NCBI GenBank assembly: GCA_963797095.1
Contig: CAWCNY010000006.1
Location: 736,001-800,000, forward strand
Source: an uncultured Chloroflexia bacterium
GTDB lineage: Bacteria > Chloroflexota > Chloroflexia > QHBQ01 > JADMIH01
DNA length: 64,000 nt
Direction: 5' to 3'
Shown here: positions 2,745 to 59,343 of the stretch, piece by piece
Layout: each line of letters begins with the position of its first letter
Numbering within the stretch: position 1 is the stretch's first letter
The notes under the pieces: model-generated
What the model saw: the letters and a program-made list of their open reading frames with translations, nothing else
Database searches by the model: none
Told to the model about the DNA's origin: nothing
Translations under genes and position numbers: made by a program

Positions 2745-3554
2745 GTGTTTCGGATTAATCGTTCTATAGTTTTGCCTGTTCTTGGCGCTATGGCGGCGCT
2801 GGGCGGCGTTGGGATGGGGGTTTCTCTGTCCCAAGCTCAGCCTGCATCCAATTGCCGCGCTTTCCCTGAAACGGGGCAGCAGATTTGCGGCAGGTTCCTC
2901 ACCTACTGGGCTCAGCACGGCGGGTTGGCCCAGCAGGGTTATCCGCTCAGCGGCGAGTTTACCGAGGTAAGCGACCTTGACGGCAAACCCTACACGGTGC
3001 AATACTTTGAGCGCGCCGTGTTCGAGCTACACCCGGAGAACCAGCCGCCGTACGATGTGCTGTTGTCGCAGTTGGGCACGTTCAGGGCCAAAGAGAAGTA
3101 CCCCAACGGCTTCCCAAGCAACGGCCAGACCCCGCCACCCTTCTACGAGGACCGCACCGACCCGGCCAACTTCATGCAGTCGTTCTACAACGCGATCAAC
3201 CGCAAGGAGTACCAGCGGGCTTACAGCTATTTCGATACAGGGACCGACAAGCCGTCGTATGACGACTTTGTGGCCGGGTACAGCGATACAGTGAGCGTGA
3301 CCGTCTACATAGGCAAGTATGAGCAGGATGCAGGCGCGGGCAACGTCTACGCAAGCGTGCCGACCGTACTGGTGGCGGCCCACACAGATGGGAGTGTGCA
3401 TACATACGCCGCTTGTTATATACTCCACCATACAAACCCCGGCATAGACCCCGCGCCCGATGCCGCGCTCTGGAAGGTGCAGAAGGGCACCGCCACCGAG
3501 GATACCTCGGGAACGCCCATAGCCGCCTTGCTTGAGAGACCTTGTGGGCCGTAA
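2745..3554 (+). CDS. secreted protein, tandem paralogue of 1820..2635
   Basis: RBS AAGGAG + GTG; shares PYTVQYFERAVFELHPENQPPYDVLL and FYNAxNRKEYQRAYSY. Confidence 0.85.
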   Translation: MFRINRSIVLPVLGAMAALGGVGMGVSLSQAQPASNCRAFPETGQQICGRFLTYWAQHGGLAQQGYPLSGEFTEVSDLDGKPYTVQYFERAVFELHPENQPPYDVLLSQLGTFRAKEKYPNGFPSNGQTPPPFYEDRTDPANFMQSFYNAINRKEYQRAYSYFDTGTDKPSYDDFVAGYSDTVSVTVYIGKYEQDAGAGNVYASVPTVLVAAHTDGSVHTYAACYILHHTNPGIDPAPDAALWKVQKGTATEDTSGTPIAALLERPCGP

Positions 3555-18107: not shown

Positions 18108-18158
18108 TTCTAAAATAGCCAAAATGACGGCGAAGCCGTCATTTTGGCTATTTTAGAA
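18108..18158. repeat. perfect 24-bp palindrome with GAA loop, between convergent genes
   Basis: TTCTAAAATAGCCAAAATGACGGC-GAA-GCCGTCATTTTGGCTATTTTAGAA, followed by a CCCCTCCCCAATTTGGGGAGGGG hairpin. Confidence 0.9.
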
Positions 18159-18297
18159 AGCCCCTCCCCAATTTGGGGAGGGGTCGTTGGGCATTCCCGA
18201 TTTATTTTGCGGACGAACCGAAAATTCTGGATGTCTAATGTTAGAAAGCCCCTTTGCCGTCCCTCGCTGCCTCGGATATATGAGGGTGTTCTGATTT

Positions 18298-46684: not shown

Positions 46685-46735
46685 TTCTGAAAAAGCCAAA
46701 ATGGCGGCCCAGCCGCCATTTTGGCTTTTTCACAA
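46685..46735. repeat. 24-bp palindrome with CCA loop (family of 18108); may act as terminator
   Basis: TTCTGAAAAAGCCAAAATGGCGGC-CCA-GCCGCCATTTTGGCTTTTTCACAA. Confidence 0.88.
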
Positions 46736-46868: not shown

Positions 46869-46992
46869 CTGCACAGGACTGAGGTATGAGCACTGAGCAC
46901 TGAGTGGGCGCACCAACGTGGATACATATATTGATGCCCGCCTGCCGCTTGGCCTCTACCCCCGTCCTGATTTTATTTATGGAGGCATAGCG

Positions 46993-47649
46993 ATGACAAT
47001 GGACGTGACCATCAGGCCCAAGAACTTCAGACTTTCTGATTCCCAGGAGACCCAGATTCGCAAGCGGGTAGAGCGCCTGCCCCGTCACCTGGACAACCTC
47101 GAACAGGGCGAAGTTCTCCTCTCGATGGAGCCGACACACTACAATTCGCAACGGCACCAGTTCGTGGCTCAAATTACCCTTCGCACTCGCAACCACAATC
47201 TCATCAGGTCCGAAGTAACTCACGCCGACCTCCTTACCGCCGTTGACGACGCCATAAGCCGCGTTTCAAGGCAGATCGAGCGCTTCAAGGGGCGCTATTA
47301 TCAGAAGAAGAAGGGCAAGCTGGGTATAGGCAAGTCCTCTGCCGACCTCGTAACTCTGAACACCGTCCCGGCCAATTCAGGCCCGTCTCCCTCTACGGTA
47401 GATACCACCATACTCGCGAATGAAGACGTAAACCTCACCACCGGGCCTCTCTCTGATGAGGAGGTGGGTGATATCGTGCGTATCAAACACTTCGCGCTCA
47501 AGCCAATGTTCCCCGACGAGGCTATTGAGCAGATGGAATTGCTTGGGCATAGCTTCTACGTCTTCTATAACGCCGGCGAGGACAGCCTGAACGTGCTCTA
47601 CCGCCGCACCGATGGCAACTACGGCCTGCTACAGCCTGAGTTGAGCTAG
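46993..47649 (+). CDS. hpf: long ribosome hibernation promoting factor
   Basis: RQIERFKGR, KPMFPDEAIEQMELLGHSFYVF, YRRTDGNYGLL; RBS GGAGG. Confidence 0.93.
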   Translation: MTMDVTIRPKNFRLSDSQETQIRKRVERLPRHLDNLEQGEVLLSMEPTHYNSQRHQFVAQITLRTRNHNLIRSEVTHADLLTAVDDAISRVSRQIERFKGRYYQKKKGKLGIGKSSADLVTLNTVPANSGPSPSTVDTTILANEDVNLTTGPLSDEEVGDIVRIKHFALKPMFPDEAIEQMELLGHSFYVFYNAGEDSLNVLYRRTDGNYGLLQPELS

Positions 47650-50528: not shown

Positions 50529-50724
50529 TATGCTTTCTCTCTTTCTGTCGGGCTATGCCTTCCTTGCGGCTGGATCATGTGGGTTAGGCGATGCCGCGCA
50601 GCATGGAACGTCAGAGCATCTCCCGATGCCTATCTCTCAATATAACACAGGGCACGCGCAGACCATAAACTTCACCCTCCCGACAGGTCTAGAAGCATCG
50701 CCTATAGATAAAGGCTCCCCCGAT

Positions 50725-50882
50725 TGCGGCAACCGTTCGTAGTCTTTGCTCAGCCGACGATTGCGGTTCAGCCATGCGAAAGTGCGTTCCACAACCCATC
50801 GTCGGGGTAGCGCCACAAAGCCTTTTTGCCTTTCCGTCTTCTCTACTATCTCCAACTGCCACCGCAGCGCAGGCTTCACCCA
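50725..50882 (-). pseudogene. IS5-family transposase C-terminal remnant
   Basis: [33 protein letters not shown]. Confidence 0.8.
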
Positions 50883-50935
50883 TTCTAAAACAGGCAAAAA
50901 TGGCGGCGCAGCCGCCATTTTTGCCTGTTTTAGAA
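50883..50935. repeat. perfect 25-bp palindrome with GCA loop (family of 18108)
   Basis: TTCTAAAACAGGCAAAAATGGCGGC-GCA-GCCGCCATTTTTGCCTGTTTTAGAA. Confidence 0.9.
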
Positions 50936-51033
50936 AGCCCCAATATTTAGGGAGGGTTGGGGTTTTGGAGCATCCTGATGCCGTTTTGTACCAATTTCAA
51001 ACATCGGGATGCTCACGAACATGAGCAAAGGCG

Positions 51034-51081
51034 TTATTTCTTCTTGCCGCCTTTCTTGCCGTCCTTCTTCTTTGCTCGCAT
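51034..51081 (-). CDS. 15-aa lysine-rich micropeptide MRAKKKDGKKGGKKK
   Basis: AAGGAGGTGA RBS 6 nt before ATG, TAA stop, downstream hairpins; absent from the ORF track. Confidence 0.65.
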   Translation of the reverse strand: MRAKKKDGKKGGKKK

Positions 51082-51141
51082 CGTCGTTCACCTCCTTCGT
51101 CGAGAAATCACTACACTTGCCTCTGTTTCGGAGGTAGTGCA

Positions 51142-51197
51142 TACACTATAGCGTAAGTAGATTCCACTATAGTGTAGAGAGAGTACATTATAGTGTA
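51142..51197. promoter_or_regulatory. three 14-bp palindromic boxes (consensus TACACTATAGTGTA) at 21-bp period
   Basis: 51142 tacactatagcgta, 51163 tccactatagtgta, 51184 tacattatagtgta. Confidence 0.75.
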
Positions 51198-51288
51198 TTC
51201 TCTGCGCCATATTATACCACATCTTGTCAAATCACCCCACATAGCCTTTTCGACGTATAGACGTATAATAGTATTGGAGGATATAGAA

Positions 51289-51663
51289 ATGGGCAAGCAA
51301 TGGATAGCAGGCGCGGTTCTTCTACTCGTTTGGGTTGGTGCCTCGATGTATTTCATCGTGGCGGGCCTCGACGTAGATCTACCCCCCGAAGTTACCGCTT
51401 ACCTGCCCCACTTCGTGGTGGTGCTCGTGGCGGGCCTCGTCTTTTTCCGCTTCCACCGTACAACCGGCGATCCCGCTCTCGATGCCGCTAATCTATGGGC
51501 CGTTGCCTCCGGCGTCGTCCTGCTGGTCCTCCTCGGTTTCGCACTGGTCACCTGGGGCACCGACCCCAACCTGGGGAAAGATTGGCTGCTCACCGCCATC
51601 GCCTGGTCGCCCATCGCCCTTTTCCTGATTTTTCGCTACCGCAACCAGCTCAGGCCCCGCTGA
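51289..51663 (+). CDS. 4-TM membrane protein
   Basis: TATAAT 51265-51270, RBS GGAGG, hydrophobic ORF. Confidence 0.75.
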   Translation: MGKQWIAGAVLLLVWVGASMYFIVAGLDVDLPPEVTAYLPHFVVVLVAGLVFFRFHRTTGDPALDAANLWAVASGVVLLVLLGFALVTWGTDPNLGKDWLLTAIAWSPIALFLIFRYRNQLRPR

Positions 51664-53978: not shown

Positions 53979-55400
53979 ATGAGCTGGGAAGAAGAAGTAA
54001 TGGCTTTGCGGGCTGAAGTAGTCATCCTCAAAGAGCAGCTTGCCCAAGCATTGGCTGCGAACAGCCAGTTGCAGGCACAACTAGACAAGTACCGAAGCGA
54101 ACCACCCTCTTTCGTCAAGCCCAACACTGCCAAGTCCAAAGACCAGGCTAACTCCGAGAAGAAACCACGCCGCAAACGAGCCAAAGACCAAAATGGTGCC
54201 AGGCGTAGAGAGCAAACACCCACCCAAACGGTGCAGCACCACATAGAGATGTGCCCTGACTGTGGATATGGACTAAGCCAGCCCCAACTGGCCTCCGGCT
54301 CCAGACGCCAGGTGATAGAACTCCCTCCTCCCCTTCCTGTAGAAGTCACCGAGCACCAGTTGTTCAAGAGTTGGTGCGCCCGATGCTCCAAATGGCATTA
54401 TCCTCCACTCGATTTGAGCGCTCAGGGGGAGGTGATTGGACAAAGCAGAATGGGGATACGCATCGCCTCCCTGATAGCTTACTTACGCACCACCCTGAGA
54501 ATGCCGGTGCGTCTGATTAGAGAATACCTGCACATCGTGCACAACTTGCTCATCTCTACAGGTGAGATTGCGGACCTGCTGCATCGAGTGGCCGAGGCAG
54601 AGAAGGTGAGAAAAGCAGCACAAGATATCAAAGAGGGGATAAGACAGAGCAGTGTGGTGCATGGGGACGAGACAGGGTGGCGAGAAGGTGGGCAGAATGG
54701 CTATATCTGGTGCTTCTGCACGCCCCATGGTGAGCGATACTACGAGTATGACCACAGTCGGGGAGGAGCAGTGGCCAGGCGTATCCTCGGCTCACAGTTC
54801 AAGGGTACACTGGTCACCGACTTCTACGCGGCATACAATGAATTCCCAGGAGAACACCAACGATGCTGGGTGCATCTGCTGAGGGACTTACACGAGTTGA
54901 AGGAAGAGCACAAAGGGAATGAAGAAGTGGTGGAGTGGGCCAAAGGGGTGCGCGCTCTGTATGACACAGCCCAAGAGTGCCTGCGAGCTGAACAGTGCGA
55001 ACAGGGTGAACACGGTCCACCTTCTGCGGTAGAGAGAGAAGTGTTGTACATTGAGCTAATGGAGGGTGTGAGAGAGTTGGGAGGTAAGTACGCCTCAGCC
55101 AAGCCTCACAAGGAGCACCCATGTCATGCTCTGTGCAAGAGGCTGCTTCGCCACCAGGACGAGCTATTCCGCTTCGTACTACAAAGTGGCCTCTCGGCGG
55201 ACAACAACCTGGCGGAGAGGAGTGTGCGGGCGGTGGTGGTGATGCGCAAGGTGTCGGGAGGGTCGCAATCAGCAAGGGGGAGTGCCACACGCATGAGGCT
55301 GGCTACATTGTTCGGCACCTGGCGAGCTAAGGGTCTCAACCCCTTCTTTGAGTGTTTCACCCTTCTCTCTCAACCCCAACCCCAGCCCCTCACACCCTAA
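53979..55400 (+). mobile_element. IS66-family transposase (apparently intact single ORF)
   Basis: coiled coil, CPDCG, RQVIELP, HGDETGW, LVTDFYAAY, QRCWVHLLR, DNNLAERSVR; element ends not resolved. Confidence 0.9.
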
Positions 55401-56440: not shown

Positions 56441-57685
56441 TTAGGCCACTTGTTGAACCTGTTGAATAGGCACAAGCTGCACCTGGTATCCAAGGCTCTC
56501 CAAGCGACGGACTGCCCGCTTCTCTACCATCTGCCGTTCTCGCTCATCAAAGTAGTTGCCTCCCAACTCCTGGTATGATACCCGACGCAAAAGCACATGA
56601 TACACAATCACCAAGATAGAATGAGCTACCGCTACCATCGCTCTCTTGCTCCCTCTTCTACGCACCAACCGCCCGTATTGAGCCGCCAGGTATGTGCCTT
56701 TGGTACGCACTGCCCCATGTGCTGCCTCTATCAGCACCGCCTTGAGCCACGGACTTCCCTTGCGCGTCTTCCCACTCAACCGTTTACCCCCGCTCTGGTT
56801 GTTGCCCGGACACATGCCCGCCCAAGAAGCCAGGTGGTGCGCAGACGCAAATCGGGTCATGTCCACTCCTATCTCCGCTACCAGCACTTGAGCCGCTCGC
56901 TCCGAGATGCCCGGCACACTGTCCAACATTTCCAACTGCCCCTCCTCAACGAAAGGGCGCGCGCTCTCCTCAATCTCGGTGCTCACTCTCTCTATGGACG
57001 CATCAAGATAGTCAATGTGTCCAAGGTGCTCGGCTATCATGAAGCGGTGGTATCCGCGCACTCTACCGGAAAGAGCCGCCACCAACGCTTCGTGCTTCTC
57101 CCTCAGCCGTCCCTGGGCGAGATCGGCCAAGATATTGGCATCAGTCTGCCCATCAACCAGCGCACCCAACATGGCTCTGGCCGATACACCCATAATATCG
57201 GTGGCAACTCCTGCCAGCTTGATGTTGGCATCCTCCAGTATCTTCTGCAACCGATTGATGGTATTCGCTTTCTCCCTCACCAGCGTAGTGCGGAAGCGGG
57301 TCAACTCCCGCAGGTCACGTTGTGCGGCATCTGGGATGAAGCTCCCTCGGAGCAACCCGTGCCGAAGCAGATCGGCTATCCACTCCGAGTCCTTGACATC
57401 GGTCTTACGACCAGGCACTGCCTTGATATGCTGGGCGTTGACCACCAACAACTCGAACTGCTCGTAGCCTTCCAACAGGTTGTAGATTGGCTTCCAGTAA
57501 ACGCCGGTGGACTCCATCGCCACATGGGTGCACCCAACTTGCGCCAGCCAATCAGCCATGTGCAATATGTCGGCGGTCATGGTACTGAAGGTACGTACCG
57601 CCTTACCAGAGGGAGTGAGCAAACAAGCCACTATCGTCTTCTTGTGTACATCAAGACCACAGCATCGCTCGTAAATCGCGTTCAT
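56441..57685 (-). CDS. IS110-family recombinase (DEDD RuvC-like)
   Basis: GLDVHK, AMESTGVYW, KTDVKDSEWIA, SVPGI, AGMCP..SG; RBS AAGGAGG. Confidence 0.93.
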   Translation of the reverse strand: MNAIYERCCGLDVHKKTIVACLLTPSGKAVRTFSTMTADILHMADWLAQVGCTHVAMESTGVYWKPIYNLLEGYEQFELLVVNAQHIKAVPGRKTDVKDSEWIADLLRHGLLRGSFIPDAAQRDLRELTRFRTTLVREKANTINRLQKILEDANIKLAGVATDIMGVSARAMLGALVDGQTDANILADLAQGRLREKHEALVAALSGRVRGYHRFMIAEHLGHIDYLDASIERVSTEIEESARPFVEEGQLEMLDSVPGISERAAQVLVAEIGVDMTRFASAHHLASWAGMCPGNNQSGGKRLSGKTRKGSPWLKAVLIEAAHGAVRTKGTYLAAQYGRLVRRRGSKRAMVAVAHSILVIVYHVLLRRVSYQELGGNYFDERERQMVEKRAVRRLESLGYQVQLVPIQQVQQVA

Positions 57686-57710
57686 GGACCACCTTACCTC
57701 CTTGCTTGTA

Positions 57711-57750
57711 ATCTGATCCGATCTGATCCGATCTGATCCGATCTGATCCG
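57711..57750. repeat. (ATCTGATCCG)4 tandem repeat in the IS110 non-coding end
   Basis: four exact copies. Confidence 0.93.
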
Positions 57751-57999
57751 CGTAACGCTTTACAGTCAGTGCGAAGAGGTCAGCCAACAGGGTGCCCACT
57801 ATGCAAAGAATCTCCTCTACGTGCTTCCCAAGAGAGACCCCAGTACAAGGATCCCCAGAATGGGAGCGACAGACAATGGTGCCTGGGGACACCCAGGTCA
57901 TACTTAGGTACAGGCTCGTGGCACCAGACTTCGCCCGACCTTTAGCGTTGGCTGCCTCTCGCAGACTGCAGACTAAAGTATAACCATTTTCATTCGCTA

Positions 58000-59343
58000 T
58001 GGTGGCCCGTAGGGTCATGATTACTTAGGTGAGATAGAACGGCTATGACGACCATGAAAAAGCTCAACGGATTGCGCAACAACTATTCGCCGGAATACAA
58101 GGCTAACATTGTGCGGGAAATCCTGCGTGAGGAGAAGAGCGTCGCACAAATAGCTGCCGAACACGGCATCCACCCCCATCAGCTCTACCAGTGGCGAGAC
58201 ATCGCTTTGCAGGGATTGCCCACCCTTTTCTCAGGCCAATCAGCCAAAGAGCAGGCAGAGCGGGAAGCTGCCCACGCGCAGAAGGTATATGAATTGTATG
58301 CCCAGATAGGCATGTATGCCCAGATAGGCAAGCTAACCACCCAGTTGGAGTGGCTGGGAAAAAAAGCTGGAAGAATCGATGAATAAAGAGGAGCGTGTGG
58401 CGTTGCTGGAGCGGGAGCCCGTGGTCACCAGTGTGGCGGGGCTGTCCATTCGTGCGCAAACTCAGCTTCTGGGGTTGAACCGCTCCTCCTTGTACTACCG
58501 AAGTGTGCCGCCCTCGCCGTAGGAACTTTGGCTCAAGAGGCGCATAGACGAAATCTACACCGCTCACCCCTTCCCCTTCTATGGCTCCCGGCGTATCGCT
58601 GTCCAGTTGCACAACGAAGGACATTCGGTCAACCGCAAGACGGTGGCCCTCCATATGAGGGAGATGGGTCTGGTGGGGATAGCTCCCGGCCCCTCCACGA
58701 GCATGGGTAGCAAGCGAGCAGCTGATTCGAAATATCCCTATCTGCTGAGAGGAGTGGTTGCCGACTACCCAAATCACGTCTGGGGGGTAGACATCACCTA
58801 CATAAGAATGGTAGGCGGCCCACAGGCTTATCCGGGGTGGCTGTACCTGGTGGCGGTGTTGGACTGGCACTCGTGGACTGGCACTCGCGCTACATAGTCA
58901 GTTGGGAACTGAGCCAGAACATGGGGCAAGGCTTTGTCATGGACGCTGCGCGAGCAGCCCTTGCCAAAGCGACGCCTTTCATCTGGAACTCTGACCAGGG
59001 AAGCCAGTTCACCTCCCCTCAGTACACCGCCCTGCTGGAGGGGGCGGGAGTGCAAATCAGCATGGATGGCAGAGGCCGGTTCGTGGACAACATCTTCACC
59101 GAGCGGCTTTGGCGAACGAATAAATACGAAGAAGTCTACTTGCATGAGTATTGCAGTCCTAAACAGGCCAGGCACAGCCTGAGCGAGTACATCCACTTCT
59201 ACAACAACGAGCGGCCCCACCAGGCCCTGGACTATCAGACGCCGGCGGCAGTGTACCACTTGCACCGGCTAGCTACCCCACAAGAAGGAGGCAATCTCAC
59301 CTAAGAAATGGCCTTCCAGTGGTCTTGACAACCTGGGCCACCA
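58000..59343 (+). mobile_element. IS3-family element, inactivated
   Basis: IRs TGGTGGCCC...GGGCCACCA; orfA 58045 HTH; A7G slip site 58359-58366; orfB WGVDITY, NSDQGSQF, ERLWRTNKYEE; TAG at 58520-58522 and a 14-nt duplication. Confidence 0.92.

Follow-up and report, generated by a model that had tools for sequence, protein, structure and literature searches.

The window analysed here is a 64,000-nucleotide stretch of contig C6 of an uncultured Chloroflexia bacterium, whose genome (G000) comprises 6.0 Mb in 8 contigs with 57.9% G+C. On the minus strand, the window contains a micro-ORF of 15 codons with ATG at 51081-51079 and TAA at 51036-51034 (Table 1). The encoded peptide consists, after Met, of 8 Lys, 3 Gly, 1 Asp, 1 Arg, and 1 Ala, and carries a net charge of +8. 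It contains no hydrophobic residue and no signal sequence, and is thus expected to be a cytoplasmic, flexible polycation. Sequence reading and retranslation reproduced the frame, the Shine-Dalgarno block, the spacer, and the peptide as described in the first-pass annotation, which had also correctly placed the extended -10 element and both hairpins that follow the stop codon.

The micro-ORF is a clear outlier within its genome. Specifically, a whole-genome scan of G000 counted 5518 ORFs of 8-50 codons that have a strong Shine-Dalgarno core in front of them, and the micro-ORF is the sole one among them with a Lys content of at least 40%. Its Lys fraction is 0.53, the runner-up has a fraction of 0.30, and just two ORFs reach 30%.

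Table 1. Features of the micro-gene locus in the window and related loci in other genomes.
Feature	Coordinates	Strand	Basis or remark
Micro-ORF, 15 codons and TAA	51034..51081 (contig C6:787034-787081)	-	Sequence reading, retranslation
Shine-Dalgarno block, 10 bases	51088..51097	-	Six-base spacer to ATG; sequence reading
Extended -10 element of micro-gene	51211..51219	-	Sequence reading; promoter activity predicted
Three 14-base near-palindromes	51142-51155, 51163-51176, 51184-51197 (51142..51197)	.	Between -10 box and ribosome-binding site
Two overlapping hairpins just 3' of stop	50968..51026	-	Sequence reading, folding
25-pair perfect hairpin, ~53 bases, G+C-rich core then T run	50883..50935	.	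Terminator-like scan flag, folding
Divergent 124-residue predicted membrane protein gene, no Pfam family	51289..51663	+	Synteny anchor
DDE transposase C-terminal remnant, outside micro-gene unit	50637..50918	-	Pfam DDE_Tnp_1_2, E = 3.4e-10
Long hibernation factor, IS66- and IS110-family transposases (joint listing)	46918-47646, 53979-55397, 56444-58018	+, +, -	
N-terminal Lys/Asp/Gly tail, polyphosphate kinase 2 (PPK2)-like protein	L199 495-1424 (G004)		
N-terminal Lys/Asp/Gly tail, M20 amidohydrolase-like protein	L198 559-1923 (G025, also G029)		
C-terminal Lys/Asp/Gly tail, 94-residue membrane-anchored protein	L176 492-773 (G015)		
C-terminal Lys/Asp/Gly tail, 504-residue protein	L344 (G494)		
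77-residue protein, mostly Lys/Asp/Gly run	L332 1450-1680 (G465)		
Second micro-gene family	L194 ~2984-3062 (G007); L206 1517-1591 (G009); L207 1515-1610 (G030)		
Second micro-gene family, further loci	L205 and L210 (G019, two copies); G016, G021, G022, G032 (unpublished)		

Upstream of the micro-ORF, just 8 bases separate a -35-like hexamer from the -10 box. There is thus no -35 element at working distance, and the predicted promoter is based on the extended -10 element alone. A simple promoter scan that demands both hexamers returned no promoter for the micro-gene. Extended -10 boxes located 60-125 bases 5' of the ORF are found in G000, G035/G038, G030, G032 (unpublished), G037, and G041.

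Between the -10 box and the ribosome-binding site, the first-pass annotation had noticed an operator-like array. The array is present and is sharper than described: its three near-palindromes are phased by exactly 21 bases, and each is 1 base off one perfect palindrome. No further site within one mismatch of the perfect palindrome occurs anywhere in the 6.0-Mb genome. Because the 7-base spacers differ among themselves, the array is not a plain tandem duplication. By inspection, no such palindromes are present in the syntenic region of the congener G017. The array is probably an operator for a dimeric repressor; a family scan of the 11 neighbouring ORFs of G000 revealed no transcription-factor family. 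NrdR boxes are ruled out, as the boxes upstream of nrdR, 13 kb off, have a different half-site spacing. Phage-type RNA-polymerase promoters were also considered, and a search for the polymerase gave no match in G000, nor did its positive control.

The nrdR region itself lies beyond the window end (G000 C6:800000-801000), where nrdR precedes a ribonucleotide reductase frame. This frame remains open over 2064 residues, has three separate profile matches, and possibly carries inteins. In the gap between nrdR and the reductase, a run of a 7-base unit faces its own inverted copy, and the two could form a long hairpin.

A riboswitch- or thermometer-like leader is ruled out, because the leader folds no better than shuffled sequences except where the palindromes pair (z = -1.85 to +0.53 in the other loci; -2.4 in G000, due to the palindromes). 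In the minimum-energy fold of G000, the Shine-Dalgarno block pairs with an upstream pyrimidine stretch; the centroid fold has no such pairing. Rfam 15 gave no match on the ORF or the leader; the highest score, 24 bits where the gathering score is 51, came from microRNA models on the long hairpin.

Downstream of the stop codon, the two overlapping hairpins comprise a 5-pair stem (51026-51011) and a 13-pair stem with one mismatch (51014-50968). The 160 bases 3' of the micro-ORF fold at -72.4 kcal/mol (z = -9.0), and the 25-pair hairpin in this segment is the likely end of the micro-gene transcript. It is also one copy of a dispersed palindromic repeat, to which about 40 other G000 loci align (hand count, 74 rows). 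From about the post-stop hairpins onward, a few other loci align, and the post-stop hairpin stretch may therefore belong to the same repeat. Further copies are located at 18108-18164 and 46685-46725 of the window, and the repeat is spread over 6 of the 8 contigs; some copies reach about 80 bases further 5', and the flanks are T-rich. In form, the repeat resembles a bidirectional terminator element of the REP or MITE type.

The surroundings of the micro-gene are rich in mobile-element genes. The DDE transposase remnant has no other copy in G000, and beyond it, further downstream, lies a DUF3887 alpha/beta hydrolase gene. A long-form ribosome hibernation factor is encoded 3.4 kb from the micro-gene.

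Apart from the blastn and synteny comparisons, relatives of the micro-gene were searched for by sequence pattern, and many of the genomes are incomplete MAGs, so all counts from the pattern searches are lower bounds. A blastn search of the 371-base unit against 40 relatives returned weak matches in G017, G028, and G021, each coinciding exactly with the ribosome-binding site and the ORF. The G021 match (unpublished genome) was rejected as a micro-gene, since it is the tail of a longer ORF. The gene of the divergent membrane protein, which serves as anchor, occurs in 5 of the 26 genomes of the genus, and a micro-ORF adjoins it in G000 and G017 only. In G017, whose anchor is the closest (73% identity), the corresponding divergent position is taken by a Lys/Asp/Gly ORF of 21 codons. 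It has the same 12-base Shine-Dalgarno block and Lys frame as in G000, and is followed by a strong hairpin and then a convergent gene. With a copy placed in this way between a divergent and a convergent gene, the micro-ORF is not the decayed end of a longer gene, a possibility that the first-pass annotation had named. No such ORF is present at the syntenic site of G015 (spacer of about 100 bases) or of G014 (about 300 bases). The micro-gene thus has an orthologue, yet it is not fixed in the genus.

In the 40 genomes of the order, a pattern looser than that of the species-genome scan described below matched 7 genomes, against no match for the reversed control, and five of the seven are in-frame Lys/Asp/Gly micro-ORFs. 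A still looser pattern with free spacers between three Lys pairs added G041, G030, G037, and G032 (unpublished). In total, 9 of the 40 genomes carry a Lys/Asp/Gly micro-ORF (8 without the unpublished G032), distributed by genus as 3 of 26, 4 of 7, and 2 of 2. Among the 11 order genomes with at least 90% completeness and at most 5% contamination (hand reading), three are carriers. A start-proximal triple-Lys pattern was matched in 31 of the 40 genomes; in the 50 loci inspected, the sole Lys-rich micro-ORF is the already known gene of G038, and the remaining loci are starts of ordinary proteins.

Outside the order, three additional members were found elsewhere in Chloroflexota. The phylum was sampled evenly with 401 genomes, of which the pattern that had matched 7 order genomes matched 10 (12 rows); the reversed control gave 20 matches, so the pattern in itself is not enriched there. 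True micro-ORFs in this sample are those of G000 and of G282, the latter with 21 codons and a classic terminator. For the class, 151 genomes were sampled, in which a fixed Lys/Asp-or-Gly pattern produced 20 rows versus 2 for the reversed control. Outside the order, these rows include one new micro-ORF of 24 codons (G487) and three longer proteins that contain a run of this kind. A scan of about 185,000 species genomes covered a Shine-Dalgarno core, an ATG, and Lys-Lys-Asp-Gly-Lys-Lys near the start. The 68 loci recovered are mostly ordinary protein starts or out of frame; three are in-frame ORFs of at most 30 codons, and two of these three are Lys-rich (18 and 26 codons), both from Chloroflexota MAGs, one labelled Chloroflexia and one Anaerolineae. 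The combination of ribosome-binding site and ORF recurs among Chloroflexota with a patchy distribution.

Other collections yielded no further members among the loci examined. Metagenome contigs scanned for orthologues of the G000/G017 type gave 22 loci with no micro-ORF of this kind, and among at least 119 loci in viral contigs, eight are short ORFs, none built only of Lys, Asp, and Gly. Three relatives of the micro-peptide have no exact match in a collection of 15 billion proteins, the three relatives of 21-26 residues have no match in Pfam (E up to 10) or NCBIfam, and the 77-residue Lys/Asp/Gly-rich relative has no usable match in the ESM Atlas. A literature search at the level of paper listings returned no paper on Lys/Asp/Gly micro-proteins in Chloroflexota. 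At L031, a locus of a Chloroflexia MAG with the same gene as G028, a tandem array with a unit of about 8 bases (~345-408) lies directly 5' of the promoter-like box of the micro-gene.

In the class, ordinary proteins also carry the Lys/Asp/Gly composition as tails at the N- or C-terminus; their enzyme families were named by eye from sequence (Table 1). In addition, a second, better conserved micro-gene family occurs in the genomes listed in Table 1. Its members have 23-31 codons and begin with seven invariant residues, Met-Gly-Asp-Lys-Ser-Pro-Lys, before a Lys-rich stretch, and they are equipped with an extended -10 promoter and a strong ribosome-binding site; the flanking genes vary by genome. 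Three members gave no match in Pfam or NCBIfam, and the family is absent from G000 by blastn.

The micro-ORFs share a common architecture. In all 11 loci, an ATG stands in the Lys frame and a stop codon closes the Lys-rich run, neither of which was demanded by the search patterns used on the order. A strong Shine-Dalgarno sequence precedes the ATG by 4-9 bases in 8 of the 11 loci (the ribosome-binding site is weak in G030, G037, and G041), and a stem-loop of at least 9 pairs follows the stop codon in 10 of the 11. The G000 micro-gene, with its own promoter-like box, strong ribosome-binding site, hairpins, syntenic copy in G017, and look-alikes in Chloroflexota, fits the earlier description of a stand-alone unit below the size limits of gene callers.

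Substitutions are consistent with a coding sequence. G035 and G038 differ by 1 synonymous change in 15 codons. Over their first 13 codons, G030 and G032 (unpublished) show 4 changes, all of them synonymous, after which the C-terminus diverges. By hand count, the G035/G038 leader through the stop codon shows about 2 differences in about 116 columns, and the flanking untranscribed spacers are about 60-70% alike. Synonymous-biased conservation, which the first-pass annotation had named as a check, is seen in both orthologue pairs, and it is weak evidence because the pairs are close kin, with flanking genes about 93-95% identical (hand counts). Moreover, changes at the third position of Lys codons would equally be neutral in a purine-rich RNA.

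In 10 distinct loci, 159 of the 168 residues after Met are Lys (106), Gly (28), or Asp (25), and the others are at positions 2-3; this figure is partly circular because the family is of low complexity and was both found by pattern and assembled by its composition. It takes two or three changes to turn a Lys codon into an Asp or Gly codon, and the residues one step from Lys (Glu, Arg, Asn, Gln, and Thr) are nearly absent, which is partly set by the grouping of the sequences. All 9 loci of the order encode peptides with a net charge between +7 and +9, at lengths of 14-21 residues, and the two longest peptides outside the order reach +11. Across the family, which ranges from 14 to 26 residues with 1-6 acidic residues, longer peptides carry more Asp. 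This narrow net charge across lengths is suggestive, in a small sample of related genomes.

Taken together, we consider it probable that the micro-ORF is a real translated gene. Most likely, it is a member of a family not described before, whose peptides have 14-26 residues, are built almost entirely of Lys, Asp, and Gly, and are present in an uncultured Chloroflexia order and scattered elsewhere in Chloroflexota. Homology between the lineages is not separable from convergence in a low-complexity family found by pattern. No neighbour is conserved across the micro-gene lineages, so gene context gives no target.

For its function, we give an even chance to a stand-alone, conditionally expressed gene whose polycationic micropeptide would bind a polyanion. 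Specifically, transcription would start from the extended -10 promoter and produce a 5' leader of about 120 bases that ends in a near-perfect ribosome-binding site, and the transcript would probably end at the hairpins of the dispersed palindromic repeat. Expression is proposed to be conditional because the phased palindromes between promoter and start suggest repression; in G000, a dimeric repressor would probably gate expression through the three sites. The product would be a disordered cytoplasmic polycation with a net charge of about +8, which would most likely act through electrostatic binding of a polyanion, with RNA or ribosomes, DNA, polyphosphate, and acidic membrane lipids as the candidates. 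The binding to nucleic acid proposed in the first-pass annotation is a reasonable inference from the charge. The micro-peptide would act as an accessory factor and not as a core ribosomal protein.

A bolder proposal, which we put forward tentatively as somewhat unlikely, is that Chloroflexia use a lineage-specific Lys/Asp/Gly module with a charge near +8 both as enzyme tails and as free, strongly promoted micro-proteins. The free peptide might represent a new class of charge-metered regulator, competing for or coating a polyanion such as polyphosphate granules, the nucleoid, or the acidic membrane surface, under a dedicated three-site operator in G000.

Several other explanations account for part of the same observations. 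Translation of the frame could matter instead of the peptide, as in a regulatory or sensing mini-ORF that responds to Lys-tRNA or ribosome load or provides a stability cap for a small RNA. The 8 Lys codons out of 15, the leaders of 60-125 bases, the nearly invariant G035/G038 leader, the predicted pairing of the ribosome-binding site with a pyrimidine stretch in G000 (minimum-energy fold only) and G038, and the two overlapping hairpins after the G000 stop codon are compatible with such a sensor. We nevertheless regard it as quite unlikely: a strong hairpin closes the unit after the stop codon in 10 of the 11 loci, the genes beyond are unrelated or convergent with no Lys-related gene downstream, and the G000 hairpins may belong to the dispersed repeat. 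Moreover, the leaders fold no better than shuffles (the lower z in G000 stems from the palindromes), and codon sensing explains neither the restriction to Asp and Gly between lysines nor the narrow net charge. Alternatively, there might be no function at the peptide level, the locus being a non-coding element that acts as purine-rich RNA or DNA, or else an ORF, neutral or newly arisen, with a start and a stop by coincidence. This would fit the low-complexity purine-rich sequence, the patchy occurrence, the transposase-rich region around the G000 copy, its loss or original absence at the syntenic site of G015 and G014, and the lack of confident alignment between lineages. It is rendered improbable by the ATG in the Lys frame and the run-closing stop codon in every locus, which the patterns had not demanded, by the near-absence of the one-step codon neighbours of Lys (partly set by grouping), and by the reversed controls, with 0 versus 7 matches in the order and 2 versus 20 rows in the class.

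In the remaining alternative, the peptide would sit in a cleft of the rRNA as a tiny ribosomal protein like bS22/eL41, bL37, or bTHX. The peptide is small, very basic, and apparently strongly expressed, and proteins of this kind were long missed by annotation. The profile searches point in the other direction. A six-frame search of the whole G000 genome with PF08213 (bS22/eL41/mS38; E up to 1) gave no match, although the control matched in Corynebacterium, and PF17070 (bTHX) gave three matches of 15-16 bits against a cut-off of 29.7, none at the micro-gene locus. The direct Pfam test covered the longer relatives, which matched neither Pfam nor NCBIfam, as the 15-residue peptide is too short for hmmscan. 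In addition, the variable length of 14-26 residues, the 1-6 acidic residues, and the occurrence in 9 of 40 order genomes differ from the clade-wide bS22 and bL37. We therefore judge a core ribosomal role very unlikely, and the kinship with eL41/bS22 or bTHX suggested in the first-pass annotation is not borne out.

To our knowledge, genes of 15 codons are invisible to annotation, very few bacterial peptides so small have a known role, and there is almost no small-protein biology in Chloroflexota. If translated, the micro-gene would represent a new kind of micro-protein in this phylum, with a full gene architecture, recurrence in several Chloroflexota lineages, a restricted composition, and a nearly fixed net charge. 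It provides a peptide that can be synthesised and a candidate operator. Should the peptide prove to be seated in the ribosome, no lineage-specific ribosomal micro-protein would precede it in Chloroflexota.

Among known systems, the leader peptides of his, trp, and thr attenuators are also short ORFs with a run of one codon and hairpins after it, comparable to the Lys codons that make up 8 of the 15 here. However, the micro-ORF fails as a leader-peptide attenuator, having no biosynthetic or tRNA-related operon directly behind it in the same orientation. In G017, G035/G038, and L074 the next gene is convergent, and in G000 the transposase remnant and the hydrolase come next; because no downstream gene is conserved, the micro-ORF is not a leader peptide. 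The two overlapping hairpins of the G000 micro-gene may belong to a dispersed repeat, and the other loci have a single terminator-like stem.

Short unstructured stretches with a charge of about +8, such as the K-Ras C-terminus, the MARCKS effector domain, and protamine-like condensers, bind acidic lipids or nucleic acids by charge. In contrast to polybasic tails, the micro-peptide is free-standing and has neither a lipid anchor nor a folded partner, and its binding is predicted from charge. The basic ribosomal peptide bTHX of Thermus and plastids, with about 26 residues and a Gly/Lys-rich start, resembles the micro-peptide in its small size, basicity, and Gly/Lys-rich start, but differs in that its profile has no match at the micro-gene locus.

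The nearest analogues in size and charge are bS22, which is related to eL41 and mS38, and bL37. The published account of these proteins (PMC10081302) describes bS22 and bL37 as highly basic proteins of 33 and 24 residues, respectively, whose genes were long unannotated, as is that of M. tuberculosis bL37. According to the same account, both are conserved throughout Actinobacteria and bind via lysine-phosphate salt bridges (PMC10081302). In contrast to bS22 and bL37, the micro-peptides carry Asp and Gly, vary in length, are of low complexity, and are patchy instead of clade-wide. Thus, the micro-peptide is not a member of any family tested, and works at most like the known polycationic micro-proteins.
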